A stretch of 64,000 nt of DNA from positions 184,585-248,584 of the forward strand of contig OZ244939.1 in assembly GCA_965222235.1 (NCBI GenBank), in the 5' to 3' direction. The position numbers and the translations under genes were made by a program. Under the pieces are notes generated by a model, which was not told the origin of the DNA, ran no database searches, and saw nothing but the letters and a program-made list of their open reading frames with translations. This document shows, one piece after another, positions 41,691-59,092 of this stretch (position 1 is the first letter of the stretch; each line of letters starts with the position of its first letter). The stretch is from Minisyncoccota bacterium (GTDB lineage Bacteria; Patescibacteriota; Minisyncoccia; Phycocordibacterales; JABAAK01).

Positions 41691-41761
41691 GCGGGTATAG
41701 TTCAGTGGCAGAACGTAGCCTTCCCAAGGCTAAAACGAGGGTTCAATTCCCTCTACCCGCA
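41691..41761 (+). tRNA. tRNA-Gly (anticodon CCC)
   Basis: GCGGGTATAGTTCAGTGGCAGAAC...TAGCC-TTCCCAA-GGCTA...GAGGG-TTCAATT-CCCTC-TACCCGCA. A typical tRNA-Gly acceptor and D arm with a short variable loop. Confidence 0.8.
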
Positions 41762-41861
41762 CTTAAGTGTAAAAGAAGGATGGTACCCAGTTCCCCATTG
41801 ATGCCCCGAACTATAGACGGAGTGCTTATATTGCATTGTTATGCCTAATCATCAACAGGAC

Positions 41862-44144: not shown

Positions 44145-44346
44145 ATTGTGCCAAGAAAATCGGCATTTATACTACATTTTTATAATACCACCATCTTCCA
44201 ACTACGACTAAAAGAATCCACACAATGTAAAATAGCTGTATATGCTGCGGATTCCCGAGTCAAATTCCTACCGTATGAAAACGCTGCCGGCTGCCACAAC
44301 ACAAGTACGGAAACAAGACATACCGCCAACATGCTATACTGCCAGT

Positions 44347-44511
44347 ATGAAAAAAGATAATGAACATAAAGTACACGACGTACAAAAAAAGGTTCCTATC
44401 CTTAAAGCGCATGAGGTGCGCGACAAGTTCACTGATAAAGAATTTGAAGTGTTTGCTAAAGATATTCGGGATCGTTTCTTACCTGCGTTTAAAAAACTCG
44501 CTAAAGAATAG
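44347..44511 (+). CDS. candidate antitoxin (small charged protein immediately upstream of doc)
   Basis: ORF of 54 aa (MKKDNEHKVHD...) ending 3 bp before the doc start. Position and size fit a Phd-like partner. There is no sequence-family evidence. Confidence 0.4.
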   Translation: MKKDNEHKVHDVQKKVPILKAHEVRDKFTDKEFEVFAKDIRDRFLPAFKKLAKE

Positions 44512-44514
44512 TGT

Positions 44515-45006
44515 ATGGATTTTACCTATCCGCCGAAAGATGAGATGAGGGTGCGTATTGAAAAAATCAAAAATCTCTGCGAAAAAGAAAAAGATTCTTT
44601 CCTTGCAAGGATGTTCGCTTCACCCGACCCGCATGATAAGACAGTGGTGTTTGACTACATTGACGATGAATGGATAGACACGGTACACGGAAAGATTCAG
44701 TCGGTCGCTGAAAGCAGTATGTATAACGGTGACGGTACCGTTGAGCACCGAATCGCCTATATCTGCGTTGACATTAACACAGCGCATCGTTTCGGCAACG
44801 GTAACAAACGTTCAAGCCTGTTGACCTTACTTTTACTCCTCATCTACAACGATATGTGGGAGCGAATTCGCATGACAAATGATACAGACATCTACAACCT
44901 CGCCAAAAAGATCGCACGGGAGGGCTCAGCGGGGAGAGATAACAATATCATTGCTCTTCGTGAATGTCTCAAACACGGCAACTTTAAAAAATGTACCGAG
45001 ATTTAA
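44515..45006 (+). CDS. doc: Doc (death-on-curing)/Fic-fold toxin
   Basis: Doc-type Fic motif HRFGNGNKR (consensus HxFx(D/N)GNKR) in a protein of about 160 aa. Confidence 0.7.
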   Translation: MDFTYPPKDEMRVRIEKIKNLCEKEKDSFLARMFASPDPHDKTVVFDYIDDEWIDTVHGKIQSVAESSMYNGDGTVEHRIAYICVDINTAHRFGNGNKRSSLLTLLLLLIYNDMWERIRMTNDTDIYNLAKKIAREGSAGRDNNIIALRECLKHGNFKKCTEI

Positions 45007-45176
45007 TTCAATTTAAATAATCACATACCTAGCTCTACGGGTACAACGAGTCATGGACTTTGAGATTACCGAGATGTACGCGTGTCGTGTCTGTGACTAC
45101 TCTGTCTGCGTATGTAGTGTCTCATATCCCGCCGAACGCTGTGTCTGCCACGCCACAGAGCATCCTTGTTTTTTAC

Positions 45177-45644
45177 TCATCTTCCGGTGTAGGGGCGCAT
45201 TATACCGTTGTCTTCATTGATCCAGAATCTCTTGCCGGCATTCGGACCAGTGAAGTATATTCTACCGCACTCGCACTGCTCTCCCGTCTTATCCGGCTTG
45301 CAGATTCCGAATCTATCGTAGCGATAATTGTTTTCATCGTAAAGTACTGATGCAACCGACGGAATGATCGGACACACCAGCGGTTGTTTTGATGGGGCGG
45401 ATGTTTTCTCAGCTGAGATGTTTTTGAGCGCTTCCGTTACTTCCTGAAACCCCCGGTCAATTTGCTCCAGAATTTCTTCTATTGCTTTGTTGTCTTCATA
45501 CCGGGAAAATGTCTCAACAGGATTAATCGCACCGGTGCTACGCAATAGCGGGCTGTACGAGCCGGTTACAAAGCCGAGTATGAACAGCGCAAGCCCAACA
45601 ACCAACATACTGCAGATAATTTTGTGTTTTTGGCTCATATGCAC
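45177..45644 (-). CDS. hypothetical membrane-anchored protein
   Basis: N-terminal TM (IICSMLVVGLALFILGFV) and a C-terminal region with four Cys. No recognisable family. Confidence 0.35.
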   Translation of the reverse strand: MHMSQKHKIICSMLVVGLALFILGFVTGSYSPLLRSTGAINPVETFSRYEDNKAIEEILEQIDRGFQEVTEALKNISAEKTSAPSKQPLVCPIIPSVASVLYDENNYRYDRFGICKPDKTGEQCECGRIYFTGPNAGKRFWINEDNGIMRPYTGR

Positions 45645-45789
45645 CCATCATTATACTTTATATGTCATTAAGTTTCAGATTGAATTCGCACCTGAAGTGC
45701 AACAAAAAGAAAAAACACATACGCCCGCTTGGTACTATGGATATGTTACTAACCATAACCAAACAGGCGTATGTACACTCATAGTACCA

Positions 45790-46407
45790 TTACTAAGTGG
45801 TATACACCACCAGAGAATCTATGACCGGGTAAGAAGAGAGCGACCGGATCTCAAAGACAGGTTGCCGAGAAAAGGAAGGAAGAAAAGAAAGAAAACAGGA
45901 AAGAGGACAGTATGGGTCAGTACAACACGGTCAATACACAACAGACCGGAGACAGACGGGCTCTCCCGGGAGGGAGACACACTGGTGGGGCCGACAAAGA
46001 CAAGAATACTCACCCATGTGGAGAGGAAAAGCTTGTATCTTGATGCCAGAGTCATACGAGACGGTTTGTCCTACACCGTACATGAGACACTGCAAAAGAG
46101 ACCGCTGCAGGGACAAATCACCTATGACTGCGGTTCTGAATTCACCCTATGGAAATGGATAGAAGAGGATACGGGAGCGACTGTCTACTTTTGTGATCCT
46201 CATTCCCCGGGACAGCGGGGCAAGAATGAGAACACTACCGGCAGGCTCAGACGAGTCTACCCCAAGAACACTGATCTCAGCACGATAGCACAACAGAATC
46301 TCAACAATATTGTCCACCTCATGAACAACACCCCGAGGAAGTCCCTTAACTGGAAAACTCCCGCTCAGGTGTATACTGCACTTGTTGCATCTCAGTCGAG
46401 AGTCTAA
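45790..46407 (+). pseudogene. IS30-family transposase, 5'-truncated remnant (catalytic DDE domain only)
   Basis: The C-terminal 200 aa match the IS30 catalytic region (EGDTLVG ... YDCGSEF ... YFCDPHSPGQRGKNENTTGRLRRVYPKNTDL ... NNTPRKSLNWKTPAQVY). The N-terminal HTH domain is absent and no terminal inverted repeats were found. Confidence 0.65.
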
Positions 46408-46497
46408 TAAACGCAAAGGAAAACACATATCAGGAAAATATACAGCAAAATCAAGAAAAAGGAGGGCATTTCATTATTTCAACAAATTATCCGGAAT

Positions 46498-46602
46498 ATG
46501 ATGCTTTTTCCCACAATGTTTGTGTTACAATGCAATACATATGAAGGAGGGAAAAGAGTACATCCCGAGGTCGCAGGAACCAAAACCTTTCATGGAAGGA
46601 GC
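46498..46602 (+). repeat. direct repeat, left copy of the pair bracketing the RHS locus
   Basis: The 97-bp stretch at 46506-46602 is identical to 57499-57595, verified base by base. It carries ...ttgtgttacaatgcaatacat ATG AAGGAGG..., so it includes a start codon and an SD-like purine tract. This copy is followed by only a 29-codon ORF. Confidence 0.85.
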
Positions 46603-47247
46603 AAGGAAGAGGGAGGCGAAGTGGTGAGGGGAGAGCGAGGGCGAAGCGAAGCACAGCCCGAACTGACCCGAGCCCTGAGGCGATCGATGACGAAGTGAAC
46701 TCGCGAAGCAAAAGGACGGAAGGGGGAATACTGTACCTGCCGCGCCTTTCACCGACGACATTTTCTTTTTCCTTTGCCCCGTCGTGCGAGACGCAGTTCT
46801 GTCAAAGACATGATGACTGTCCACTCTCCATACCGTACCGGTACCTGGCTGTCTCGAGCACGCGGGGTGCGGGGTGCGGTTGAATTGCAAAAGAAAATGA
46901 CGACGGTGATTGGCGCGGGGAGCGGCGCGGAACACTTTGCGCGTTGCGAGCTTGCGAGTGGCGCTCCTTTGTTGGTTAAAGTGTTTACTGTGCGTACGGA
47001 GCGTATGGTTTGGTTTGGAGCTATGGGGCGAGTGGAGCGTGCGAGTTGGGAGTGTTTAAATTACACTGTTTCCGGAGTTCGTGGACAATGTAGGTTACTG
47101 TACTTTTGGGTAGTGTTTTGGAACTCTCTGAAGTTTGAGCACAATCTCCTAAACGGCACTTAGAGGTAAAAGATAGCACTATGCGATTGTTTATTCAGCT
47201 CTGCTGATCCTACTCGGCATAGTATATATTTTCTTTTAAAAACCTTT

Positions 47248-47892
47248 TCAATCCCATGGTATTTTATTTTCGTTTTCATCTACCGGGTAGTAATCTAAGA
47301 TAACACCATTTCTAAGAAAAGGAGATAGGGGCAGGTGATGGAAGTAGTACCTTTGACCTTCTTTGGGTCTGTGAGGTTGAAGGAATAAGTAGGTGTTTAG
47401 ACTGTTTTTTGCGCGTGCACTCCCACCGATATTAAATTCCGGATCCGCGATATTTATATGAGTACTCCAACCGAATGCACCCTGATTATAACTTTCAACT
47501 GTGTATATCTTTTTAATAGAAACATCCCCATAGATTAAAGAGATCATAGTATATTTTATGGCGGGGAATAAATAAAATAATAGGAAGATTCCTACAAAAA
47601 ACCCCATAAAATGGAGTGTGACTGCCATCTTGTTTGGTTTTCTGCGGGGAGAGATAAAATTGTACAACCCCTTTTTATTTCTTTTGTACAAAAAATAGTC
47701 TGTTTTGTACATTTCAAATAGAAGTAAAAGGGACACTGCACTGTAGAAGGAAAAATAAAAAATCCAGCTTGCCAACCATTCCGGTAGAAAAAATTGTGAT
47801 ATGGAAATAGTCACAAAAAAAACAGTACCGGTATATTTATAAATAGGATTTCCCTTGAAAAATTTAATGATTTTCTTTAGAATGTTCTTCAT
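47248..47892 (-). CDS. candidate immunity protein for the orphan RHS C-terminal toxin (3-TM membrane protein, paralog of 49369-50013)
   Basis: Protein of 214 aa. Its start overlaps the orphan toxin stop by 4 bp. It is roughly 50-60% identical by eye to the protein following the full-length RHS gene. Three predicted TM helices and a roughly 100-aa C-terminal soluble part. Confidence 0.55.
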   Translation of the reverse strand: MKNILKKIIKFFKGNPIYKYTGTVFFVTISISQFFLPEWLASWIFYFSFYSAVSLLLLFEMYKTDYFLYKRNKKGLYNFISPRRKPNKMAVTLHFMGFFVGIFLLFYLFPAIKYTMISLIYGDVSIKKIYTVESYNQGAFGWSTHINIADPEFNIGGSARAKNSLNTYLFLQPHRPKEGQRYYFHHLPLSPFLRNGVILDYYPVDENENKIPWD

Positions 47893-49400
47893 CTTCCTGA
47901 CTGTAACTCTGCTATTTGTCTTTTTATTCGTGTTATCTCTCTTATTAAGTAAGAGATTTTTTCTCTTTTTGCTCGCGCAGCCTGATAGGTTTCTATGTGT
48001 CTCCCTACTCCGCTATAAAAGGATTTTGGAAACGATCTTGTTGTCTCAGCAACAAAGCCTTTCAATCCTGTTGTAGCACTTACACCAAATATAGAAACGT
48101 TTCCGTTGCTAAGTTTTGTGAGTGTTGATGAGTACACTGCAGAAAAACTGTTGGAACCACTTGTAATGCCAGATATTTTTATATATTTGCCAATACCAGA
48201 AAAAACAGCACTCTCAAAAAATCTTGAACTAAGTCTTGCAAAATTAAACTCCTGATTCGGGTCCTTATGCATCTCCCATCCTTGCTCAATTGAATCTCTG
48301 ACTACACCACCAGCAGTGCCTGCAATGATAGCAGCTAGTAAAGAAGTACCTACTACCAGCCCTCCGGTAGTAGCACCTCCGGCTGTAGCTGCAATATATT
48401 TATACCCTTCAGAAACCTCACCGGCAATAACATCAGTAATCACCTGAGAACCTGCCCCTACTAATACACCAACTGTGACACCAATCGCTATATGCGCCAA
48501 CTCCCCATCCCTATCCTCATAGCGCAGAGGATTATTCATAGCATACGCATAGGTATGGTGTGCCTGAGGATTGGTAAGGTAGTCAAGAAACGATACGCCT
48601 GTTGCTGCCTCAAACGCCACCGGACCTCCTATGTATTCTATTACCGGATCTTTGGAGATAAACAGTCCTTTATTCGGATCGTAGTATCGAGCATTTCTGT
48701 AGATAAAGTCTGTTTCATCCGTTATATTCCCCGTATGGGTATAGAGTGAATCTGTTGTGGCTGTTTCCGTATGTTTTTCTCCGTAGGGGTAGTAGTCTAT
48801 TGTTTGGGTTACCGTTCCTTCTTTATTTATTCCCGCAATGGTACTTCCCAGTGCATCAGTGTAGAGATGGGTGTGCTGTGTTTTCTTGCATCGGGTGTCT
48901 TCTGTATTCGGGGATACAGTGACTGCTGTTTCATTTCCTCTTTTTACTACGATATTACCGTTTTCCGTTACCTTTGTATACTCTGTCTCCGGTGTGAGAG
49001 TGAAGAGGAGACTGGTTTGTGTGAGGAGACAAAGATCACTTACCCCGCTTACATTCTTGATACTTCCTATCACTTCTCCTTCGGCGAAGATGTGTGTTTC
49101 AATAGTACCGTTTTCAAGGGTGTAGTACGGATTTACAAAAACTGTACTACCTGTCCCCTTTGTTTCTTTCACCCGATTACCTTCATGATCATAGAGATAG
49201 GTGTAGGTGTCAGCTCCTTCGGTGATTGTTTTTACTCTGCCTTTGTAGTCCCAGGTAAGGGTGTTGGTTCCGTCTGTCAGGAAGTTTCCGTTTGTGTCAT
49301 AGGTCTGTGCCGCTGTGCCTACTGTAGTGGGCATGTGGGGGGTGGTGAAGGTTGTCTCATCGATTGTTCTACTCATCATATATCCTATTTCTATTTTCAT
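47889..49400 (-). CDS. orphan RHS C-terminal module: the last YD repeats, the RHS core (...RYYDPNKGLFISKDP...) and a diverged C-terminal toxin domain
   Basis: Residues from DETTFTTPHMPTT to NNPLRYEDRDGELAHIAIG are near-identical to the C-terminal part of the 50010-57374 protein. The last 200 aa diverge (VTVGVLVGAG... versus AAIGAAIGAL...). It has its own ATG (MKIEIGYMMSR). Expression is uncertain. Confidence 0.7.
   Translation of the reverse strand: MKIEIGYMMSRTIDETTFTTPHMPTTVGTAAQTYDTNGNFLTDGTNTLTWDYKGRVKTITEGADTYTYLYDHEGNRVKETKGTGSTVFVNPYYTLENGTIETHIFAEGEVIGSIKNVSGVSDLCLLTQTSLLFTLTPETEYTKVTENGNIVVKRGNETAVTVSPNTEDTRCKKTQHTHLYTDALGSTIAGINKEGTVTQTIDYYPYGEKHTETATTDSLYTHTGNITDETDFIYRNARYYDPNKGLFISKDPVIEYIGGPVAFEAATGVSFLDYLTNPQAHHTYAYAMNNPLRYEDRDGELAHIAIGVTVGVLVGAGSQVITDVIAGEVSEGYKYIAATAGGATTGGLVVGTSLLAAIIAGTAGGVVRDSIEQGWEMHKDPNQEFNFARLSSRFFESAVFSGIGKYIKISGITSGSNSFSAVYSSTLTKLSNGNVSIFGVSATTGLKGFVAETTRSFPKSFYSGVGRHIETYQAARAKREKISYLIREITRIKRQIAELQSGR
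48479..49362. repeat. duplicated RHS core segment, orphan copy (about 884 bp, near-identical to 50615-51498)
   Basis: The ORF track shows identical antisense ORFs at 48492 and 50628. Only a handful of mismatches were seen. The boundaries were read from where the alignment breaks: above 49362/51498 and below 48479/50615. Confidence 0.85.
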
Positions 49401-50013
49401 CTACTGGGTAGTAATCTAGTATGACCCCTACTCTAAGAAAAGAAGAAAGGGGTAAGTAATGAAAATAATATTCTTGATCTGGTTTCGGTCTGAACGGGTG
49501 TAAAAATAAAAAGGTGTATAAACTGTTCCTTTCGCTTGCACTACCACCGATATTAAATTCGGGGTCTTTAATATAAATATGTGTTATCCAACCAAACCCA
49601 CCCTGACCAGACTTTTCAACCGTGTATACCTTTTTAATAGAAACATCTTCATGAGCTAAGGAAACAACAGTGTGTTTAATGACAGGAAGGACAGAGAATA
49701 AAACAAGAATAATCATAAGAGATTCTAAAATACGTAGTACGAGTAATGTTTTGGTTGGTTTCTTATTAAAATAAAGATAGGCATGTAATCTTTTTTTATT
49801 TTTTGTATATAGAAAGTAAATCGGTTTGCATAACTCAAACAAGCAAACAAAAAACATGGCAGTATAGAAATAGAAGTAGAAAATCCACGTTGATAGCCAT
49901 ATTGGTATGAAGTATTTCGGTACAAAGAGGACAATGAAAAGACCGATGCCGATATAGGTATAGATAGGGTGTTTCTTAAAAAATCTGATAATTTTTTTCA
50001 AAATGTTCTTCAT
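49369..50013 (-). CDS. candidate immunity protein for the full-length RHS toxin (3-TM membrane protein)
   Basis: Its start codon overlaps the RHS stop in an ATGA arrangement at 50010-50013. Protein of 214 aa, paralogous to 47248-47892. Confidence 0.55.
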   Translation of the reverse strand: MKNILKKIIRFFKKHPIYTYIGIGLFIVLFVPKYFIPIWLSTWIFYFYFYTAMFFVCLFELCKPIYFLYTKNKKRLHAYLYFNKKPTKTLLVLRILESLMIILVLFSVLPVIKHTVVSLAHEDVSIKKVYTVEKSGQGGFGWITHIYIKDPEFNIGGSASERNSLYTFLFLHPFRPKPDQEYYFHYLPLSSFLRVGVILDYYPVDENRNRIYDE

Positions 50014-53000
50014 CTTCTTGATTGTAGTGCTCTGATCCTTCTTTTTAATCTTGTTATTTCTTTTCGTAAGTAAGAGATTCTTTTCCTGATGCTTTGTGTC
50101 GTTATGTTGCTGTTATGTACACGTCTCTGAGTTCCTTCAAAAAAAGATTGAGGAAGTGATCGTGTTGTTTCAGCAACAAAGCCTTTTAATCCTGTTTTAG
50201 CACTCACATTAAGTATGGAAGCAGTGCCCCTACCAACTCGTGTGAGTGTTGATGAGTATGTTGAAGAAAAACTATGAGAACCTTTTGTGACATATGGAAT
50301 TTTTACAAATTTGCCGGCACCAGAAAGAAGAGAACTTCCTATTGTCCTAAAACCAAATCTCACAAAATTAAATTTCTGATCCTCGTTTTTATGCACCTCC
50401 CAACCTTGCTCAATTAAATCTCTCGTTGCCCCACCGGCACCTCCTGCAAGAAACAAACTGGCACCTCCTGTACCCGCTGCTATTGTCCCGGTAGTAGCAC
50501 CTCCAACCCCGGCAGCAACATAGCGGTAGGGATCAGAAACCTCTCCTGCGATGACATCAGCAACTACTTGAGAACCTATTCCTGCTAGTGCACCAATCGC
50601 AGCACCAATCGCAGCACCAATCGCTATATGCGCCAACTCCCCATCCCTATCCTCATAGCGCAGAGGATTATTCATAGCATACGCATAGGTATGGTGTGCC
50701 TGAGGATTGGTAAGGTAGTCAAGAAACGATACGCCTGTTGCTGCCTCAAACGCCACCGGACCTCCTATGTATTCTATTACCGGATCTTTGGAGATAAACA
50801 GTCCTTTATTCGGATCGTAGTATCGAGCATTTCTGTAGATAAAGTCTGTTTCATCCGTTATATTCCCCGTATGGGTATAGAGTGAATCTGTTGTGGCTGT
50901 TTCCGTATGTTTTTCTCCGTAGGGGTAGTAGTCTATTGTTTGGGTTACCGTTCCTTCTTTATTTATTCCCGCAATGGTACTTCCCAGTGCATCAGTGTAG
51001 AGATGGGTGTGCTGTGTTTTCTTGCATCGGGTGTCTTCTGTATTCGGGGATACAGTGACTGCTGTTTCATTTCCTCTTTTTACTACGATATTACCGTTTT
51101 CCGTTACCTTTGTATACTCTGTCTCCGGTGTGAGAGTGAAGAGGAGACTGGTTTGTGTGAGGAGACAAAGATCACTTACCCCGCTTACATTCTTGATACT
51201 TCCTATCACTTCTCCTTCGGCGAAGATGTGTGTTTCAATAGTACCGTTTTCAAGGGTGTAGTACGGATTTACAAAAACTGTATTATCTGTCCCCTTTGTT
51301 TCTTTCACCCGATTACCTTCATGATCATAGAGATAGGTGTAGGTGTCAGCTCCTTCGGTGATTGTTTTTACTCTGCCTTTGTAGTCCCAGGTAAGGGTGT
51401 TGGTTCCGTCTGTCAGGAAGTTTCCGTTTGTGTCATAGGTCTGTGCCGCTGTGCCTACTGTAGTGGGCATGTGGGGGGTAGTGAAGGTTGTCTCATCGGA
51501 GGTAAGATAAGTATAGTTGCCGACACCCGTTTTTGAGGTTATATTCCCTATCGCGTTGTATGTATAGCTTCTTGTGTAATTGTTTGATCCGTTATTGGTT
51601 ACTGTTGCACTAATGAGACGATTCATATTGTCATACGTGTATGCTTTGTTTACCGCTGTACCCGATGTGTTAGTATCAATCGTAGCAGTTATGTTACTGT
51701 CTCTGTCGTAGGTGTACTCAAGTTTTCTCGCAACAGCGATACTATTCCCCTTCACTTCCCTTATTGTCAGTCTTCCCGATGAATCGTATGTGTTTGTTTC
51801 TTTTGATCCGTTTGATCCGGTTTTTGTGTCAACCAGACCGAATACGTTGTAGGTAAGGGTTGTAAAGGGAGTATCGCTCACGGATACCGAAGAAACTCTG
51901 CCATTTTTTCCGTAGATGTTTTTAATAACAGTGCTGTTCGGAAGTGTTGTGGTGACTATGCCATTCTGTAAATTATGTGTATAGGTTGTTGTGTATGCGG
52001 TGCCGCTGATTGTTTTCACCTCTTCTTTCAGATTTCCTTCTTTATCGTATTTATAGGTCGCATTAACACTATCCGCTGAGGTAACAGAACAGATGCTTCC
52101 TTTTCCGTTCTCACAGGAATCGTATGTATACTGATAATCCGTTCCTGTAACAGATGCTCTGTCCTCCGTTAATGCCCTGCCGAGTGCATCATAGGTATAT
52201 GCTATAGCGGTTCCGTCCCGCTTTGTTTTTGATGTCAGGTACTCCTTGTTATACGCAAATTGCAGTGTCTTGTATGTCGTATCACTCGTGTGATGTAAAT
52301 CCTCAATGCTTGTGGTTCGTCCTATCATGTCATACTGTATACCACGGACATTATTCAACGCATCCTTCACTTTAATAATGCGATCCAATGGATCGTAGGT
52401 ATAGGTGGTGGTATGGGTGGAGGCACCGTCTATTTCATGCACCCTGTGCAGACGCCCGTAGCTGTCGTGTTCCAAACGTTTTTTCCTGTCCTCCGCCGAG
52501 GTAATTTCAACCGTATGCCCGTCATATGATGAAGTTGTTGTTCCGACCGGATTAACCACAGATACTATTCTGTTCAGCCCGTCATAGGTTGAGGAAGTGT
52601 TTGACGTGCCGGTTGGTGTTGTTGCATATGAACTTGTTGATGACTGGTACGGCATGTATTTTTTCTCAATCAGTCCCCGCTCGGTGTATGTTACATCCTC
52701 AGTATCAAACTTCGTGCCGTTAGATGTTTTTGTCTGTATTGTTCTGCCCAGACCGTCCATGTATGTCTGTCCGATTCTGGTTGCTGATCCGAAGTGCTCC
52801 CTCCTTTGCACTGAGTACGGACGATTTGTAAAGTTATACGAATAATCCGCCACTGTCTCTTTTGTACTTGCCCGTTTTTTCTTTATCGCCGTTATTCTGT
52901 CAATTCCGTCAAATTCGTAGTATATCTCAAAACCGTTCGGGTCTGTTATTTTTGTTACCTCTCCTGATGTTTCGTCGTATTCATACTGTGTGACATGTGA

Positions 53001-56000
53001 GAGTGGGTTGGTTTCCTGTGTCAGACGCAGTGAGTTGGTGTCATACGTATAGGTTGTTGTGTTGTTCAGGGAATCATTTTCCGTCAGCACCCGCCCTCTC
53101 GTGTTGTATGTGTAGGTTCTTTTTTGCTTTGTCGTGCCGTCTATCTTTCTCTTTTTTGTGAGCATATTCCCATTTGAGTCGTAGGTATACTCATTTTCAA
53201 CAATAATCACATCCGATGCATTTTTTATCGTTTCCTCGGACAGCAATGAAACTATATAATTGGTCGTGTCCGGCGTTTTGTAGGTGTACACTACCTTGCG
53301 CAATACGGCGGTTCCGCTCTTTTTTGTCTCAGTGAGCACATTACCGTATGTGTCGTAAGTGTATTCCGTGCTGTTTGAGTAGTCATCACCGAATGTTACA
53401 TTGCCGCTGCCGTATACCGTCTTTTTCTCTTTTGTCAGGTACATGTATGTGCTGTTTGTGCCGTTGCTGGTTTCCCCGTATGTGTATTCAATCTTTTCAA
53501 GAAGAATGTTCGACTCGCCTTCATTTACTGCCGCTTGGTATATTTCTTTCTTGTACGGAAGTCCTATTTTTGCATACGAGTCAGTCGGTTCCGCATTGGT
53601 GCTATTCTGCCCATTTCCCTGGTGGTAGTATATTTTTTCTTTTCTGTTTCCCCGTGTTCTCTCCACTGTTTCAAAACCGGCGAACTTTTTGTCAGACGGA
53701 CCGTTAAAGTAGTAATACCCGCCTGTGTACCCGAGAGTTTCCGTGTTGTCCGTGGCATATGTATCCGTATATGCAATTGAGGAGACGATGCGGAGGGGAA
53801 ACGGCACCCTGTTGGTTGTATCATGCACTCCGGCACCGGTGTACGATATATCAAAACTGCCGCCGTATTTGGTAGTGATTGTGTCTAATTCAAACGTGTT
53901 GTCAGCAATGAAGTATTTGTAGTCATATCCAAAATTTCTTCTCCCCACTCTTTGCTTTTTATAGTACACATCATTTATTCCGTCGCCGTTTACATCTATC
54001 ATGGCATTTACATATATATTTCCGTTTGAGTTTGATCCGGCATGTTCTAATATACCTGCATTCCTGAGAGCGTCGGTATATTTCTTACTGTATTGATACC
54101 CATCAATACCCTTACTCAAATAGACTCGGTATCCGTAGTTATGTGTTTTGGTTATATCTTTGATATTTCGATCAATATCTCTATCGTTATAAATATCGGT
54201 GACAATGAGGTCATACATACCATCCGTGTTTATATCCTTCCATGATCCGGCATATCTGTCAGTACTGAAGTTATTGTTTCCGTCGGCAAAATAAATTGTG
54301 GGGTAATTCAAGTAATCAATGTCCGCCGACCAGCCGAACCCATTATTGATTTTAGATCTACTTATATCAGCAAGACCGTCACCGTTGTAGTCAATAAGGA
54401 AGTTCGGAACTCGTAACCCGTAATAGGGACCGTGATAGGGATCCCCCCTGTTGTAGTACAGAATATACGGTACTGATATGGTGCTTGACTGTACCGGATT
54501 AAATCCGTCGGCGTTTAGAAACACAAGTGTTGTAGTGTAATCCCTCCATCCGCCACCACGAGTATGCCTATCATACCTCTTTGGAAATACATCCAACGTC
54601 CCATCTCCGTTTATATCACCCAGACCGTCAGCCCATGAGGAATGAAAGTCCCTGTTAATAGAGGTTCTGCTGAAGGTGTTGAGTGAGCCATTATTCTTGT
54701 ATATATAACTGTTAGTACTGCACCTCTTACATCTTCTTGTTATGACCTGAAGAAAATCAGGGTAATAATCGCCGTTCATATCAAACTTACCCTGAACGCT
54801 ATCAAATGTCGGAAACATATCGATTGCGGAGTTAAAACCGTTACCATTGTTCACCTGAGTATCATTTGTCGCCCCCAAGGAAACAACATCAGGCATACCA
54901 TCCCTTGTCGCATCTGCAAGACCTGACGGACCGGTAGATCCATAACTGCTGTTTTCCGTGTATGAAATAGTGTCAGTGTATCCAAACGTTGTTTTCGGTT
55001 CGGTTGTCCAATTGCCGTCTGCATCCTTGCCGTATTTGTACAACGCTTTGATAACATACGTGTATTTCAATTCATTGACAAGTTCAAGATCCTGTTTGTA
55101 TGAAAATAGTTTTTCCGTACCTTTGTAAAAGTCAATGCCGTTTATTATGTACTTCGTTTTTACCGGAAATCCTGTATTGAAAAGTTTTGTCTTATCATTT
55201 CTCCCCTGTTTGGTGAATTGGAGCGAATACACATATGATCCTCCGGAAGTATTTACATACTCTATCTTCTTCGGGTATATCTGCCCGTGGTCTTTGGTGT
55301 ATGTGTACTCTATCGTGTTGCCATTTGTATCTTCTATCTTTTCAAGCATCCATTTGAACGTTTCTGTTTCCCACTGTACCGTGCCGTCCTGACGCGCCTG
55401 CAGAGTTTCACCGAAGTAATACTTCGTACCGACGGTATCAGTTACTACCCAATAATCACCAATTTTCTCGTATTTTCTGAATGCTCCTTTTTCTGTCCTC
55501 GGCTTATACATCTCCGACTGTGTGGTACTCTTTGTTGTTGTTTCACTTATTTTGTATGTGTATACCTCACCCCCATCGTACCACCGGTTTCGGCGACTGT
55601 CAAACCTGGTAACTCCCGCAGCGATATATCCTCCGTCAAGAGATATTGATCGCGCAGAAAAATCACCTGTGATGTCGGGGGGAATTACTTTTCTCTCAAA
55701 TCCCCAGGTGCCGTCACTTTTCTCTTTATACACATAAAACATATACTTTCTATGTTCTGTATCCCTTGCGCCCACTGTTAAGGTGTCTCCGTCGAGCAAA
55801 ACACCCCATGAACCGAAAACAATGTTCGAGTGGCTGTCTGACGCTTTCAGTTTCACCGGATTACCCCATGTTCCGTCTGATTCTCTCGTGTATACATACA
55901 CCGCACCAGAGGATTCAATACCGGTACTCTCCCCACTCATACCGATTGCCAAGGTGTTTCCGTTGATTGCAACAGATGTGCCGAATGGGGTTTTTCCTAT

Positions 56001-57374
56001 TATGACTTGATTTTCATATTTTGTAGTATTGCCGGGCTTGCTTGCATTACCCCACCCTCCGTTCACATCCTCTTCGTATATAAATACTGCCGGACCGTTG
56101 CCTGTAGTAACTACAAGACGATTTCCTGCTAATGAAATACGATCTCCGAACTCTCCTGAAGTGTTGCGATTCCCATATCTGGCGCTCGGATACAGTGACT
56201 CTTTTTTTATCCACGAACCCGCATCATTCCGTTTATATACCTCAATATACCACCATGACTGTCTATCCCTCGCCTTCACCGCCAGTATGTCATCATCAAG
56301 GTATACGGTATCAGCAGACCGAACCTGAATTTCCGTTCTGTTTCCCCACACATCATTCGTCCCCCTTTTATACACAAATACCTTGTTACTTGAAACCGTG
56401 ACAGCCAAATAATCTCCTGATAGGGAAATATTTTCTCCGAAACTGGAATATGTGGCATCCGACAATCGTTGTAAAAAAGCCCACGAGCCGCTACTCTGCC
56501 TCTTGTATATATACACCACACCGTCTGCTCCATTTCTTTCGTTGTCGTCTAAGTCGTATGTAGGGGCACTCATAGCAAGGTAGTCCCCGTTTAGTGAAAC
56601 CCTTTGTCCGAACCGGCTGCTTGCTTTCCAATCGGTCGGCACAATTTTCTGTTTACTACCGATGGCATACTCCTTTACGGGATATGATGTAGACGATATA
56701 CTTGCCGTATTTTGTTTTACTATTTCACCGTCCAGTGATGAAATATAATCATCGTTTGTATATATTTTATTTGAACCCTTTTTTGTTGATCGCTCTATAT
56801 ATGGTATATCCACTTCCCAACCGTACCCGAATATGCCGTTATTCTTTTTGTTGGAACTCTTGAAAACAAGATTGTGCTGAGGAGTAAACCCGTTTCTCCC
56901 TTCGGGGACGGTAAGAGAGTATGAATAGGTGAGTGATCCGTCTAAATTGTCTATCAATGGGTGAATAACATTCCCTGATGATTTTATTGTTCCCGTTGTC
57001 CCGGATGAAGAGCCCGATGCCCCTGATGCCCCATCTTCAGTATCCTGATTATCAACATAATCGTCAGGCAACTCAAAGGACGGGTGAATGGGGCCCCCGC
57101 TATCAACAGAACCCTGAGCGGGAGGTTCCGGCAAATCACCGATTCCGTCATCCTCATCCGGCGATACGGTACCGCTCGGTCCGTCCTCTATCTGCCCTGA
57201 CGGTCCCGAAGTTTCACCCTGTGCATAAGAAACCAACGGGTTAAGGACAAGGAGCAGTGAAAGTGTAAAAGAAAGGAGTACCGATGATATTGAATGATAT
57301 CTCTTATTGCGAAACGGTACAATAGTATCAAGTGAACTATACGAACTGGTTACCATATTAAAGAAACGGTACAT
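50010..57374 (-). CDS. giant RHS/YD-repeat polymorphic toxin, a fused TcB/TcC-like cocoon protein: signal peptide, SpvB-like N-terminal domain, FG-GAP/VCBS beta-propeller repeats, YD repeats, RHS core and a variable C-terminal toxin domain
   Basis: Start set at MYRFFNMVTSS, 57374. The ORF-track extension to 57731 runs through the divergent promoter region and is judged artefactual. Signal peptide ISSVLLSFTLSLLLVLNPLVSYAQG. SpvB-like block GSLTYSYSLTVPEGRNGFTPQHNLVFKSS...GYGWEVDIPYIERST. DxNGDGxxD repeats (DINGDGTLDV, DYNGDGLADI, DVNGDGINDV). Dozens of YD repeats (YTYDTNGN, YEYDETSG, YTYDALGR...). RHS core RYYDPNKGLFISKDP ... NNPLRYEDRDGE, followed by a 208-aa C-terminal domain rich in glycine-zipper motifs. 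Confidence 0.85.
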   Translation of the reverse strand: MYRFFNMVTSSYSSLDTIVPFRNKRYHSISSVLLSFTLSLLLVLNPLVSYAQGETSGPSGQIEDGPSGTVSPDEDDGIGDLPEPPAQGSVDSGGPIHPSFELPDDYVDNQDTEDGASGASGSSSGTTGTIKSSGNVIHPLIDNLDGSLTYSYSLTVPEGRNGFTPQHNLVFKSSNKKNNGIFGYGWEVDIPYIERSTKKGSNKIYTNDDYISSLDGEIVKQNTASISSTSYPVKEYAIGSKQKIVPTDWKASSRFGQRVSLNGDYLAMSAPTYDLDDNERNGADGVVYIYKRQSSGSWAFLQRLSDATYSSFGENISLSGDYLAVTVSSNKVFVYKRGTNDVWGNRTEIQVRSADTVYLDDDILAVKARDRQSWWYIEVYKRNDAGSWIKKESLYPSARYGNRNTSGEFGDRISLAGNRLVVTTGNGPAVFIYEEDVNGGWGNASKPGNTTKYENQVIIGKTPFGTSVAINGNTLAIGMSGESTGIESSGAVYVYTRESDGTWGNPVKLKASDSHSNIVFGSWGVLLDGDTLTVGARDTEHRKYMFYVYKEKSDGTWGFERKVIPPDITGDFSARSISLDGGYIAAGVTRFDSRRNRWYDGGEVYTYKISETTTKSTTQSEMYKPRTEKGAFRKYEKIGDYWVVTDTVGTKYYFGETLQARQDGTVQWETETFKWMLEKIEDTNGNTIEYTYTKDHGQIYPKKIEYVNTSGGSYVYSLQFTKQGRNDKTKLFNTGFPVKTKYIINGIDFYKGTEKLFSYKQDLELVNELKYTYVIKALYKYGKDADGNWTTEPKTTFGYTDTISYTENSSYGSTGPSGLADATRDGMPDVVSLGATNDTQVNNGNGFNSAIDMFPTFDSVQGKFDMNGDYYPDFLQVITRRCKRCSTNSYIYKNNGSLNTFSRTSINRDFHSSWADGLGDINGDGTLDVFPKRYDRHTRGGGWRDYTTTLVFLNADGFNPVQSSTISVPYILYYNRGDPYHGPYYGLRVPNFLIDYNGDGLADISRSKINNGFGWSADIDYLNYPTIYFADGNNNFSTDRYAGSWKDINTDGMYDLIVTDIYNDRDIDRNIKDITKTHNYGYRVYLSKGIDGYQYSKKYTDALRNAGILEHAGSNSNGNIYVNAMIDVNGDGINDVYYKKQRVGRRNFGYDYKYFIADNTFELDTITTKYGGSFDISYTGAGVHDTTNRVPFPLRIVSSIAYTDTYATDNTETLGYTGGYYYFNGPSDKKFAGFETVERTRGNRKEKIYYHQGNGQNSTNAEPTDSYAKIGLPYKKEIYQAAVNEGESNILLEKIEYTYGETSNGTNSTYMYLTKEKKTVYGSGNVTFGDDYSNSTEYTYDTYGNVLTETKKSGTAVLRKVVYTYKTPDTTNYIVSLLSEETIKNASDVIIVENEYTYDSNGNMLTKKRKIDGTTKQKRTYTYNTRGRVLTENDSLNNTTTYTYDTNSLRLTQETNPLSHVTQYEYDETSGEVTKITDPNGFEIYYEFDGIDRITAIKKKRASTKETVADYSYNFTNRPYSVQRREHFGSATRIGQTYMDGLGRTIQTKTSNGTKFDTEDVTYTERGLIEKKYMPYQSSTSSYATTPTGTSNTSSTYDGLNRIVSVVNPVGTTTSSYDGHTVEITSAEDRKKRLEHDSYGRLHRVHEIDGASTHTTTYTYDPLDRIIKVKDALNNVRGIQYDMIGRTTSIEDLHHTSDTTYKTLQFAYNKEYLTSKTKRDGTAIAYTYDALGRALTEDRASVTGTDYQYTYDSCENGKGSICSVTSADSVNATYKYDKEGNLKEEVKTISGTAYTTTYTHNLQNGIVTTTLPNSTVIKNIYGKNGRVSSVSVSDTPFTTLTYNVFGLVDTKTGSNGSKETNTYDSSGRLTIREVKGNSIAVARKLEYTYDRDSNITATIDTNTSGTAVNKAYTYDNMNRLISATVTNNGSNNYTRSYTYNAIGNITSKTGVGNYTYLTSDETTFTTPHMPTTVGTAAQTYDTNGNFLTDGTNTLTWDYKGRVKTITEGADTYTYLYDHEGNRVKETKGTDNTVFVNPYYTLENGTIETHIFAEGEVIGSIKNVSGVSDLCLLTQTSLLFTLTPETEYTKVTENGNIVVKRGNETAVTVSPNTEDTRCKKTQHTHLYTDALGSTIAGINKEGTVTQTIDYYPYGEKHTETATTDSLYTHTGNITDETDFIYRNARYYDPNKGLFISKDPVIEYIGGPVAFEAATGVSFLDYLTNPQAHHTYAYAMNNPLRYEDRDGELAHIAIGAAIGAAIGALAGIGSQVVADVIAGEVSDPYRYVAAGVGGATTGTIAAGTGGASLFLAGGAGGATRDLIEQGWEVHKNEDQKFNFVRFGFRTIGSSLLSGAGKFVKIPYVTKGSHSFSSTYSSTLTRVGRGTASILNVSAKTGLKGFVAETTRSLPQSFFEGTQRRVHNSNITTQSIRKRISYLRKEITRLKRRIRALQSRR
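50615..51498. repeat. duplicated RHS core segment, copy inside the full-length gene (about 884 bp)
   Basis: See 48479-49362. The offset between the copies is 2136 bp. Confidence 0.85.
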
Positions 57375-57488
57375 ACATGCAAACACTAATATTACTATGA
57401 TACCTTTTAAATTAACCCGCGACTCACTTTCCCACTTTGGAGGCGCCGACCCGGCGCGGTTGCGCCGCATATGATGCGGAGAAAAGAC

Positions 57489-57595
57489 ATGATGTTCCTT
57501 TTCCCACAATGTTTGTGTTACAATGCAATACATATGAAGGAGGGAAAAGAGTACATCCCGAGGTCGCAGGAACCAAAACCTTTCATGGAAGGAGC
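57489..57595 (+). repeat. direct repeat, right copy, including the promoter/RBS/start of the 57533 gene
   Basis: The 97-bp stretch at 57499-57595 is identical to 46506-46602. It lies in the divergent intergenic region between the RHS gene on the minus strand and the 57533 gene on the plus strand. Confidence 0.85.
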
Positions 57596-58094
57596 GGCGT
57601 ATAGGCCTGGGGAAATCATACATTTTGACCAGGCAACCAAAGAGGAGGTTGTGGAGATTTTGAACAATCAAGATTTGTCTCAAAACGAGCGGGAGAAACG
57701 TGTTTTCACATATCTTAAAAATCATCCGCAAGATCAGCTAGTTATTGAGGGACAGATAGATGAAGTAACCTACGACGGCATTGAGAACCTGCCCCTTCCG
57801 GAGAAATATGTACTATTCTCGCATCTAATGCGAAAGTGGGATGAAAATAAATCCGTAAAAATGGAGTTAAGGAAAACCGTTGAAACCATATTTAAACGGG
57901 AGGATATCAGTGAGACAGAACAGGATGCCCTCATATCCAAGTATGTGCAAGAACAAGGTTTATCGGCAACAGATACCGATCTTCTTATACAGAAAATTGT
58001 AACCCGAGGAACCGGCAGTTTGAGCAGAAAAGAAAATGTCGCTCTTTACACAGCCCTTGAAGAGAATTGGAAACAACAGCATCACCCGCACTAA
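57533..58094 (+). CDS. hypothetical soluble protein, AT-rich, divergently transcribed from the RHS gene
   Basis: Start chosen at ATG AAG GAG GGA (MKEGKEYIPRSQ...). No recognisable family. AT-rich composition like the rest of the island. Confidence 0.4.
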
Positions 58095-58126
58095 TCCGCG
58101 GTATCATACACATTCTATAGGAATAT

Positions 58127-59092
58127 TTGAACAAAACTTTCGCGCGCATGGCGTATTTCGCGAATCAAACGAAAAACATTTATGACGGGCTGGCGTGCAT
58201 TTTTTGTGTGGTACCATACCGTACAGTTATGGATGTTCGTACCAAATTCATTCTCAGCATGTTCATCCTTGCCGGTGCGGTCGGCGCAGTCAGCGTATTT
58301 GTATACATCTCCGCAACCTCGGACCCATTCGCTGACGGCGGACAGGAAATACCCCTCCGTCCGACATCCATAGAGGACGGCGGCACGGGAGGAGTAGATC
58401 CCCTGTTCCCCATAGGAGGCGGAGAGAATAACGAGACTCCGGAAAGAAAACCGGTCGGCACCATATCTCTGGAGACTCCCGAAACGCCCGAATACGAAGC
58501 GGAAAAAGATCCCGGCAGCAGATCAAACAGGGCGCGGTATCGGGTCCGCATGCATGCCCCCTGGAGCCAGCTGCAGCACGGTACTTTCTACCCGGCAGGC
58601 GCGCACCTCTCACCGATGGTTGCCTGGGCGCACCGGCTGAAAAATACGGTGTTCGCCACCGGGACGCTTGCAAGCGACGGCATGGAAATCATGGCGGAAA
58701 CGGGAGCAACCAAAACGCTCGCCGGGGAACTGCAGGAACTCGGAAAAGAGGGACGACTCCACAACTACAACATCGGGAAGCGTATTGACGCGCCCGGCGA
58801 AGACAGCGTGATTATCGTTCTCTCCAACACCGCCCCGTTTGCGAGCGTCGTGAGCATGATAGCCCCGAGTCCGGACTGGTTCATCGCAGCACATAATGTA
58901 CGACTGTTTGAAAATAATCAATGGGTGAAAAAGAGTTCGGTTCCCGCCGTTCTGTATGACTCCGGCACCGACAGCGGAACGACCTTCACCGCGAAAGACG
59001 CGGACACCGCACCGCCCGAACCCATCCACCGGTTTGCGAAAGCGCCCGTCGTACCGATTGCCACATTTGATTTCATACGCATTGAGGATTAG
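58127..59092 (+). CDS. secreted/membrane-anchored protein with a spondin_N-like domain
   Basis: TM/signal segment (FILSMFILAGAVGAVSVFVYI). Motifs reminiscent of the F-spondin N-terminal domain (YRVRMHAPWS...FYPAGAHLSPMVAWAH...SPDWFIAAHNVRLFENNQW). The assignment is tentative. Confidence 0.45.
   Translation: MNKTFARMAYFANQTKNIYDGLACIFCVVPYRTVMDVRTKFILSMFILAGAVGAVSVFVYISATSDPFADGGQEIPLRPTSIEDGGTGGVDPLFPIGGGENNETPERKPVGTISLETPETPEYEAEKDPGSRSNRARYRVRMHAPWSQLQHGTFYPAGAHLSPMVAWAHRLKNTVFATGTLASDGMEIMAETGATKTLAGELQELGKEGRLHNYNIGKRIDAPGEDSVIIVLSNTAPFASVVSMIAPSPDWFIAAHNVRLFENNQWVKKSSVPAVLYDSGTDSGTTFTAKDADTAPPEPIHRFAKAPVVPIATFDFIRIED

Follow-up and report, generated by a model that had tools for sequence, protein, structure and literature searches.

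A perfect 97-bp direct repeat around an Rhs toxin array in a CPR bacterium looks like an ectopic duplication scar inside a tRNA-Gly island

What does it mean that an entire toxin locus is enclosed between two identical copies of a short sequence? This question is raised by a 64-kb stretch of DNA (the window) from a CPR bacterium, in which positions 46506-46602 and 57499-57595 are identical at 97/97 nucleotides. The identity of these two stretches (hereafter R) had been noticed in a first-pass annotation, together with the fact that they bracket a whole Rhs toxin/immunity array of about 10.9 kb. Both points hold, as the copies are 10,993 bp apart from start to start, with 10,896 bp in between, and such an identity is not expected by chance. 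Within the window, which covers 64 kb of a 641-kb genome, exactly two copies of R were found at ≤3 mismatches, while 100 shuffles gave none; a repeat dispersed at many sites, which would have made R a generic sequence, is thus not what the window contains. A 24-mer from R had zero matches in JGI metagenome contigs and IMG/VR.

46506..46602, plus strand: R-left, probable ectopic copy of the orf186 promoter-like region (35 nt) and of the first 62 nt of its coding sequence; identical to 57499-57595 and also found in contig L008
57499..57595, plus strand: R-right, native 5' region of orf186, with an extended -10-like motif, TGTTACAAT, at 57516-57524 and the ATG at 57534

Both copies of R are supported by independent assemblies. 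In L008, an ENA contig from another sample, the IS30-family element located left of R-left, a spacer, R and the GC-rich element G are continuous, and both flanks of R are present. This copy of R-left differs at a single base, through an indel in a homopolymer; as the contig has 2x depth, it is probably a sequencing error. In a third sample, the Logan contig L001 ends at 57566, after entering R by exactly 30 nt from the right, which matches the k=31 graph branch expected if R-G and R-orf186 paths both exist. Only the window assembly shows R-right joined to the Rhs upstream region.

R corresponds to the start of orf186, with its promoter-like region and 21 codons; the gene is complete on the right side and interrupted on the left.

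57534..58094, plus strand: orf186, intact 186-aa orphan gene, divergent from rhs, 43% GC
46541..46627, plus strand: truncated frame from R-left, 28 aa, MKEGKEYIPRSQEPKPFMEGARKREAKW, then a stop

R-right runs on into an open reading frame of 186 codons and R-left reaches a stop after 28. The first-pass annotation had rightly recognized the right copy as the 5' end of an intact gene divergent from rhs, and the left copy as keeping the same start ahead of an early stop, but its details need amending: the ATG is at 57534 and not 57533, the product has 186 and not 187 residues, and the truncated frame encodes 28 aa instead of 29 codons. It had also read a -10-like element and a ribosome-binding site in the repeat. 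TGTTACAAT is indeed an extended -10-like motif, which ends 9 nt ahead of the orf186 ATG, a spacing that suggests a leaderless-type start; however, a consensus promoter scan, the kind of prediction which had been proposed for the repeat, gave no call for this region. As for the ribosome-binding site, AAGGAGG (57537-57543) lies 3' of the ATG and therefore cannot serve it. Among 5.8 billion proteins, the only match to orf186 was itself, an exhaustive HMMER search of 1.84 billion representatives likewise returned nothing else below E=2e-4, and an exact-protein look-up found no record. Its AlphaFold2 model has a pLDDT of 48.

The DNA enclosed by the two copies contains four genes of the Rhs array.

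47248..47892, minus strand: immunity-like membrane protein 2, 214 aa, part of the orphan module
47889..49400, minus strand: orphan rhs fragment, 503 aa, end of the core and alternative C-terminal toxin
49369..50013, minus strand: immunity-like membrane protein 1, 214 aa
50010..57374, minus strand: main Rhs protein, ~2454 aa, with a signal-peptide-like N-terminus, SpvB, FG-GAP, RHS repeats and a C-terminal toxin

Pfam domains detected in the main Rhs protein are RHS_repeat (1.4e-23), FG-GAP_2 (7.8e-21) and SpvB (7.3e-15). The main and orphan genes share ~850 bp of core at roughly 100% identity (48512-49360 vs 50648-51498) and are 58-78% identical in their C-terminal toxin/immunity part. Judged from its sequence, this is an Rhs toxin locus with an orphan module, composed of predicted toxins and immunity genes. 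Its organization, i.e. a main rhs gene and its immunity gene followed by an orphan rhs fragment and a second immunity gene, is that of Rhs loci carrying orphan C-terminal modules for toxin and immunity (Poole et al., 2011, PMC3150448; Koskiniemi et al., 2014, PMC3967940), in which the near-identical core is a known substrate for toxin-swapping recombination. In contrast to these systems, the host is here a CPR bacterium, and its Rhs protein combines SpvB and FG-GAP domains with an N-terminus that resembles a signal peptide. For the N-terminal 800 aa of this protein, no relative covering ≥40% of the length exceeds 27% identity (one match reaches 42% over 16%). Moreover, the rhs genes do not contain the 97-bp repeat, which has no relation to their core homology. 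Besides the two immunity-like proteins, the orphan rhs and the main rhs, no recombinase or transposase was found among the open reading frames of 46603-57498.

On the left side, R-left is preceded by an insertion sequence and a spacer.

45680..46407, plus strand: internally deleted IS30-family element; left inverted repeat at ~45680-45706, right inverted repeat at 46382-46407, including the stop codon; transposase residues ~10-96 missing
46408..46497, unstranded: AT-rich 90-bp spacer, 31% GC, separating the end of IS30 from the repeat; no relation to the sequence left of R-right

The transposase with its DDE catalytic domain (NCBIfam transpos_IS30, E=2.4e-38, 132 bits vs a cut-off of 80) and the terminal inverted repeats place this element in the IS30 family. 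Its left and right inverted repeats were set by comparison with contigs L010-L012, and the Logan contig L009 ends at 45708, i.e. the left inverted repeat plus 30 nt. Residues 97-304 are 63% identical to intact 304-aa relatives. With most of the N-terminal helix-turn-helix DNA-binding region deleted, the element is predicted not to be autonomous. The IS30 remnant that the first-pass annotation had placed 90 bp away was therefore correctly assigned, but it has lost internal sequence while both inverted repeats are kept, and its end at 46407 lies 98 bp before the perfect repeat and 90 bp before 46498. IS30-family insertion sequences generate 2-3-bp target duplications, and none is discernible at this element. 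More generally, a transposon with a target-site duplication would show 2-15 duplicated bp abutting its terminal inverted repeats, whereas the repeat is here 97 bp long and parted from the end of the insertion sequence by unrelated DNA. The IS30 terminus was considered as the left edge of R and rejected, as the right inverted repeat, which includes the stop codon, ends at 46407; R is therefore neither an insertion-sequence terminus nor a target duplication. A mechanistic tie between IS30 and the repeat is thus not supported by the arrangement of the sequence, an unrelated AT-rich spacer lying in between. A second IS30 copy was noted separately (P0162).

The deleted IS30, the spacer and R-left are themselves part of a larger island, which ends with G and attR.

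41759..47175, unstranded: integrase-less tRNA-Gly island, 5.4 kb, with a vWA protein, an 89-aa ORF, a small Fic/Doc protein, a 155-aa ORF, the deleted IS30, the spacer, R-left and G
41759..41779, plus strand: attL core, GCACTTAAGTGTAAAAGAAGG, overlapping the 3' end of tRNA-Gly(ccc) at 41691-41762
46598..47050, unstranded: G element, GC-rich (58%) non-coding repeat, sharing its first 5 nt, GGAGC, with the end of R-left; internal 30-nt inverted repeat at 46740-46769 / 46889-46918
47133..47175, plus strand: end of the island right arm and attR core (core 47155-47175, GCACTTAGAGGTAAAAGATAG), from alignment with attL and with the attP-like junction of L007

The attL and attR cores (41759-41779 and 47155-47175) match at 16/21 positions. 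In a different genome of 831 kb (L007), positions 7195-7310 correspond to the right arm, the core and the left arm joined in an attP-like manner. A core at both ends, one of them at a tRNA 3' end, and an attP-like arrangement elsewhere identify a serine-recombinase-type tRNA island. In L007, a large serine recombinase (495 aa, with Resolvase, Recombinase and Zn_ribbon_recom domains) is located beside that genome's own tRNA-Gly, and a tblastn search with this protein gave no match in the window, this candidate for a cognate recombinase being present only in the related L007 locus. Positions 41759-45846 are 99.8% identical to a segment of L007 and, since this is a different CPR genome, such identity is evidence of recent horizontal transfer. 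Identity to L007 falls to 77% in G (L007 6686-7181 and 14339-14834, with single-base indels), and R-left, between the deleted IS30 and G, therefore sits in the interval where lineages were joined. Both G copies of L007 are devoid of R. G was rejected as a structured RNA (no match in Rfam; fold z-scores of -1.05 and -1.36, not better than shuffles) and, because of the single-base indels relative to L007, as a coding sequence; its cores had zero matches in JGI metagenome contigs and IMG/VR. Over the whole block 41763-58126, GC is 32-48% apart from G, against a core of 52-56%, from which it follows that the Rhs array is probably acquired DNA.

Both edges of R-left carry short homologies.

46491..46504, plus strand: homology at the ragged left edge, CCGGAATATGATGC, which aligns with CCGCATATGATGC (57465-57477) of hairpin 2, upstream of R-right
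57443..57479, plus strand: pair of GC-rich hairpins (57443-57457 and 57465-57479) shortly before R-right; folded as DNA, -14.5 kcal/mol with z -2.25

On the right, the R/G junction falls within the 5-nt microhomology GGAGC, common to R-right, R-left and the L007 copy of G, and the right junction of R-left coincides with the first base of homology to the G of L007. On the left, the edge is a 9-13-nt match to the hairpin 21 nt upstream of R-right: ATATGATGC abuts R-left directly and recurs inside this hairpin, and ATGATG recurs once more 4 nt upstream of R-right. By our own estimate, the chance of finding this 9-mer within 60 nt is ~6e-4. Beyond the ragged edge, the aligned flanks of the two copies are otherwise unrelated. 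At the inner edges of the bracketed segment, no terminal inverted repeats were found (score 8 vs a null mean of 8.3).

Collectively, these data lead us to favor, with some reserve, the view that R-left is a non-functional ectopic duplicate of the orf186 5' end, which arose by a RecA-independent, microhomology-mediated event at a mosaic junction inside the island. Short ectopic "filler" copies produced by microhomology-mediated illegitimate recombination or template switch are known at rearrangement junctions in bacterial genomes. Here, ~100-130 bp covering the promoter-like region and the first 21 codons of orf186 would have been copied, by template switch or illegitimate joining, to the place where the island cargo (deleted IS30 and 90-bp spacer) meets the GC-rich right arm (G and attR), presumably by copy choice and from right to left. 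Since the Rhs array lies between the island and orf186, its enclosure by the two copies, along with that of the island arm, attR, the immunity genes and the Rhs upstream region, would simply be a coincidence of position. Like duplications of this type, R-left has two novel junctions at short shared sequences (5 nt, GGAGC, and 9-13 nt around ATATGATGC), a length of ~100 bp, a source ~11 kb away on the same replicon, a hairpin beside one breakpoint and a position at the joint of DNA with different ancestry. It departs from them in its unclean left junction, where an extra 20-nt gap and a mismatch are not explained by one clean template switch. GGAGC belongs equally to G and orf186 and is compatible with either direction of copying, and the complete identity over 97 nt would also result from gene conversion, or from selection if the element were functional. 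As no ancestral state (a spacer-G joint or an island without R) was recovered, we infer how many events took place and in which order. Among the origins suggested by the first-pass annotation, a partial duplication of the 5' end of a gene is what R-left turned out to be, and a recombination scar is plausible given the microhomology at the junctions and the location of R-left inside the island.

The other origin it had suggested was the footprint of an RHS module inserting in the 5' region of a gene. In such a scenario, the segment 46603-57498 (G, attR and the Rhs array) would have entered the orf186 5' region as a unit, through a Campbell-type crossover of an R-bearing circle or an integrase acting in trans, and the R copies would be the attL and attR of an excisable cassette. 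Like the att sites of integrative islands and prophages, R forms perfect direct repeats around acquired DNA (here the whole array, of low GC) in a tRNA-linked hotspot, with the target gene rebuilt intact on one side, and segments of identity of ~100 bp are found at some tyrosine-integrase att sites. While the identical repeats at both ends of an att-bounded integrative element are thus present (97/97), the integrase within the element and the self-contained unit are both lacking. The bracketed segment has no integrase, transposase or terminal inverted repeats and starts with G and attR (46598-47175) of a separate island whose attL, at 41759, is left of R-left; it cuts across that island and is not a discrete module. 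In addition, 97 bp is far above transposon target duplications, and the junctions are ragged and microhomologous with no defined core. No empty site, circle junction, attB/attP form or repeat-less Rhs locus was recovered, because the searchable collections contain no sufficiently close relative: a scan of the genome collection with the neighbouring Mur ligase placed the nearest genomes at 57-62% amino-acid identity with rearranged synteny, and exact-protein look-ups (Mur ligase, imm2, Fic and the G-overlapping ORF) returned the same few contigs only. We consider insertion as a unit unlikely.

It is similarly doubtful that R-left is the remnant of a larger duplication, either a tandem G...R duplication joined at GGAGC, of which the first copy was then deleted, or a second, island-borne orf186 truncated against G. 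Among spontaneous rearrangements in bacteria, tandem duplications with a short microhomology at the joint are the most frequent, the R|G joint with GGAGC is exactly the novel joint predicted, and the messy left edge fits a second, independent deletion. However, at least two illegitimate events are required, the second removing almost exactly one 11-kb copy before homologous collapse, and the window holds no other trace of a second orf186 or array.

A functional role for R has little probability in our view. R would be a duplicated promoter and start cassette, from which R-left drives a small peptide or RNA into G/attR, antisense to the 3' end of the orphan array, and could regulate island excision or orphan-module expression, its identity being kept by selection or gene conversion. 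The absence of any difference between the copies, the -10-like motif and ATG kept in R-left and the conservation of non-coding G across genomes are consistent with this idea; against it stand the promoter scan, the lack of a significant fold or Rfam match in G, the L007 copies of G without R, and the arbitrary end of the 28-aa frame inside G. Even less probable is a bolder proposal, in which an Rhs cassette of CPR, devoid of an integrase and mobilised in trans, recombines at R and inserts at the orf186 5' end, rebuilding promoter and N-terminus, with the neighbouring G/att module, which serine-recombinase islands also have, as platform; if true, whole toxin/immunity arrays would be excisable and exchangeable between co-resident Paceibacterota. 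Finally, it is highly improbable that the repeat was created by the assembly, through a chimeric join or through the collapse or duplication of a repeat, since, although one junction of R-right is specific to the window's own assembly, two other samples agree with the repeat through L008, which spans spacer-R-G, and L001, which stops exactly k-1 nt inside R, and the contig names suggest long-read assemblies, in which reads easily span 97 bp.

The ectopic duplicate thus has the appearance of a common recombination scar, of the sort that genome plasticity routinely leaves, and not of a new mobility mechanism. As the first-pass annotation had anticipated, the repeats could mediate loss of the locus, 97 bp being long enough for homologous deletion: a RecA-dependent event would remove the 10,993-bp unit together with attR and leave IS30-spacer-R-orf186, and tandem amplification of the same unit would be the alternative outcome. 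The repeat would hence at most mark a unit, made of the island attR and the whole Rhs array, that is open to homologous loss or amplification. The mobile-element mosaic which surrounds it is more notable, and the mobile-element biology of such layered hotspots is, to our knowledge, poorly documented in CPR bacteria: in this Paceibacterota genome of ~0.64 Mb, the tRNA-Gly hotspot combines an island and a Sec-type Rhs toxin, the latter with its orphan module, with a derivative of IS30 and a GC-rich repeat of the dispersed kind.

The direct repeat that the first-pass annotation reported around the Rhs locus is borne out: positions 46506–46602 (R-left) and 57499–57595 (R-right) were found by both a repeat finder and a pattern search to be identical across 97 nt, with a spacing of 10,993 bp from start to start. 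A search tolerating up to three mismatches recovers exactly these two copies from the 64-kb window and none from 100 shuffled sequences. An assembly artefact was rejected as the source of this repeat. Contig L008 (ENA), assembled from a different sample, spans the IS30 element, the following spacer, the repeat and the adjoining G element with 99.95% identity, and contig L001 (Logan), which comes from a third sample, stops exactly 30 nt inside the repeat, counted from its right boundary, as expected of a k = 31 graph if both continuations of the repeat occur in that sample. The junction between R-right and the region upstream of rhs is known from a single assembly.

A Mur ligase near the locus matches only Candidatus Paceibacterota/Pacebacteria genomes (57–62% identity), which assigns the window to a CPR bacterium; the contig bearing its proteins is 641 kb long in the protein collection record. 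The features surrounding the repeat are as follows.

Features around the two repeat copies (window positions)
about 45680–45706: left inverted repeat of the IS30 element, retained together with the first 10 codons
46382–46407: right inverted repeat of the IS30 element, retained
46598–47050: G, a GC-rich (58%), non-coding element starting immediately right of R-left
47248–47892, − strand: second 214-aa immunity-like protein
47889–49400, − strand: orphan rhs fragment
49369–50013, − strand: membrane protein of 214 aa, immunity-like
50010–57374, − strand: Rhs protein of 2454 aa with SpvB, FG-GAP and RHS repeats

The main rhs gene followed by an orphan module corresponds to the classical orphan-module architecture (PMC3150448, PMC3967940). 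About 850 bp of the main rhs core (50648–51498) and of the orphan fragment (48512–49360) are roughly 100% identical, whereas the toxin and immunity parts of the two modules share merely 58–78% identity. Such core identity is a known substrate for toxin-swapping deletions in Rhs loci with orphan modules; the shared stretch is much longer than the 97-bp repeat and suits homologous recombination far better. The Rhs protein is predicted to begin with a signal-peptide-like segment, after which come SpvB, FG-GAP and VCBS-like repeats. A search of 5.8 billion proteins with its first 800 residues returned no relative that covers at least 40% of them with more than 27% identity; one match reaches 42% identity, but across 16% of the length. 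As a delivery region, this N-terminal part is unusual for a CPR bacterium without known contact-dependent secretion systems.

R-right forms the 5′ region of orf186, whose start and length, previously given as 57533 and 187 residues, are corrected to an ATG at 57534 and 186 residues (57534–58094). In R-left, the same frame (46541–46627) does end early, as had been proposed, with 28 residues rather than 29 codons preceding the stop. The ribosome-binding site claimed for each copy did not hold: AAGGAGG lies 3′ of the ATG and is thus excluded as its Shine-Dalgarno sequence. The extended −10-like motif TGTTACAAT ends 9 nt before the ATG, a placement suggestive of a leaderless-type start, and a simple consensus scan of both repeat copies called no promoter. 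The orf186 product is an orphan, its sole match among 5.8 billion clustered proteins being itself; among 1.84 billion representatives, nothing scored below E = 2e-4, and an AlphaFold model built from the single sequence has a pLDDT of 48, too low to be reliable. Between the rhs start and orf186, beside the left breakpoint of the repeat, two adjoining GC-rich hairpins with 6-bp stems are predicted (57443–57479, DNA fold z −2.25). Next to cell-wall genes, positions 58127–59092 encode a protein with a Spondin_N domain (E = 1e-32), a domain best known from animal F-spondin; it is kept in one relative (L002, 50% identity).

The IS30 element noted 90 bp from the repeat was confirmed (NCBIfam transpos_IS30, E = 2.4e-38), and its ends were mapped by comparison with intact relatives of 301–304 aa (L010–L012); members of this subgroup have the transposase stop codon within the right inverted repeat. 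The window holds an element with both ends kept (45680–46407) from which transposase residues of about 10–96 are gone. This deletion looks in-frame and takes out the helix-turn-helix DNA-binding region. No target duplication is discernible, and a second copy elsewhere in the genome is 96% identical (P0162, 263 aa). Since the element ends at 46407 and the next 90 bp, which are AT-rich, bear no resemblance to the sequence left of R-right, the repeat was rejected as an IS terminus or target duplication.

The surroundings of R-left were clarified by comparison with L007, a different Paceibacterota genome on an 831-kb contig that is circular according to its name. Positions 41759–45846, which encode a vWA protein, an 89-aa ORF, a small Fic/Doc protein, a 155-aa ORF and the start of the IS, are 99.8% identical to L007, even though the sole housekeeping stretch common to both loci is 188 nt long and only about 73% identical, underlying a gene called dCMP deaminase in L007. 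The shared block starts at the 3′ end of tRNA-Gly(ccc) (41691–41762). A 21-nt core, GCACTTAAGTGTAAAAGAAGG (41759–41779), recurs as GCACTTAGAGGTAAAAGATAG at 47155–47175 (16/21), preceded by the right-arm sequence AGTTTGAGCA...CTCCTAA.CGGCA. In L007, the same right arm is joined via the core to the vWA side, forming an attP-like junction (L007 7195–7310), and tRNA-Gly(ccc) adjoins a large serine recombinase (495 aa); no such gene is present in the window. The L007 stretches considered alongside the island were 7195–7310 and 17650–17796. From these sequence comparisons, we conclude that 41759–47175 is an integrase-less island inserted at tRNA-Gly, and that it contains R-left where its cargo meets its right arm. 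The att structure suggests that, before insertion, tRNA-Gly and the distal end of the Rhs array lay side by side. Apart from G, the block 41763–58126 is low in GC (31–48% vs 52–56% in the core), so that the Rhs array and orf186 were probably acquired earlier, into the same hotspot.

Within the island, at 44242–45006, the 89-aa ORF lies directly 5′ of a 163-aa protein whose Fic/Doc match is weak (E = 2.7e-4, narrowly missing the Pfam cut-off); as island cargo, the two may form a toxin–antitoxin pair. L007 has arm-plus-core units of about 290 bp (four copies 98–99% identical and a fifth at 77%), a 252-bp inverted repeat bracketing the recombinase gene (15947–16198/17483–17734) and the vWA–Fic segment as a 4,682-bp inverted duplication (5514–10195/11325–16006, 99.7%); this arrangement could reflect either a palindrome created in assembly or a hotspot of rearrangement driven by a recombinase. 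L008 ends at 47176, 1 nt past the attR core, and another Logan contig (L009) begins at 41759, the first attL-core base, which would fit alternative core joints in these samples, stemming from an excised or tandem island or from the co-occurring L007-type genome.

The G element is 77% identical to two copies in L007, with several partial copies there and in L006, which carries a longer variant with an extra block of about 52 nt. Single-base indels between copies indicate that it is non-coding; an Rfam search gave no match and a fold test no significant structure. It is a dispersed, purine-skewed repeat with a MITE-like internal 30-nt inverted repeat (46740–46769/46889–46918) and a sub-repeat (46921–47041).

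Homology of L007 to G begins at GGAGC, the final 5 nt of the repeat, and the right junction of R-left falls within this motif, common to orf186, R-left and the L007 copy of G. The left junction is ragged: CCGGAATATGATGC (46491–46504) abuts R-left and matches CCGCATATGATGC (57465–57477), inside the second predicted hairpin and 21 nt upstream of R-right, and ATGATG is found again at 57489–57494. We estimate at ~6e-4 the chance that a 9-mer abutting one copy recurs no more than 60 nt from the other. Apart from these short matches, the flanks show no relationship, and no inverted repeats were found at the inner edges of the bracketed DNA.

The simplest account of this anatomy is a RecA-independent event mediated by microhomology, in which a template switch or illegitimate join would have placed a copy of ~100–130 bp from the 5′ region of orf186 in the island, at the point where the 99.8% lineage (cargo) meets the 77% lineage (right arm), with a secondary loss of 20 nt at the left edge afterwards. 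R-right is probably the original copy, as it runs on into the 186-codon frame; the direction of copying is no firmer than probable because GGAGC belongs to both partners. That the repeat is a remnant of a larger duplication or a functional promoter cassette are minor possibilities. One reading offered by the first-pass annotation was the footprint of an Rhs module inserting into orf186 with a 97-bp duplication. This is disfavoured, as the bracketed DNA has no recombinase, opens with the arm and attR of another island instead of being self-contained, and has ragged, microhomologous edges. Homologue searches, a genome scan and metagenome scans returned no close relative, and no ancestral state was recovered.

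RecA-dependent deletion between the two copies is plausible; it would drop attR along with the whole Rhs array and join the IS30 element, spacer and repeat to orf186. The copies could equally support amplification. No variant of either kind was seen. Collectively, the repeat is genuine but best read as an ordinary scar of recombination within a mobile-DNA mosaic, a known kind of feature. More noteworthy are the island and its twin in a different CPR genome, whose 99.8% identity, together with the att and recombinase arrangement of L007, points to a recent horizontal transfer from one CPR bacterium to another.
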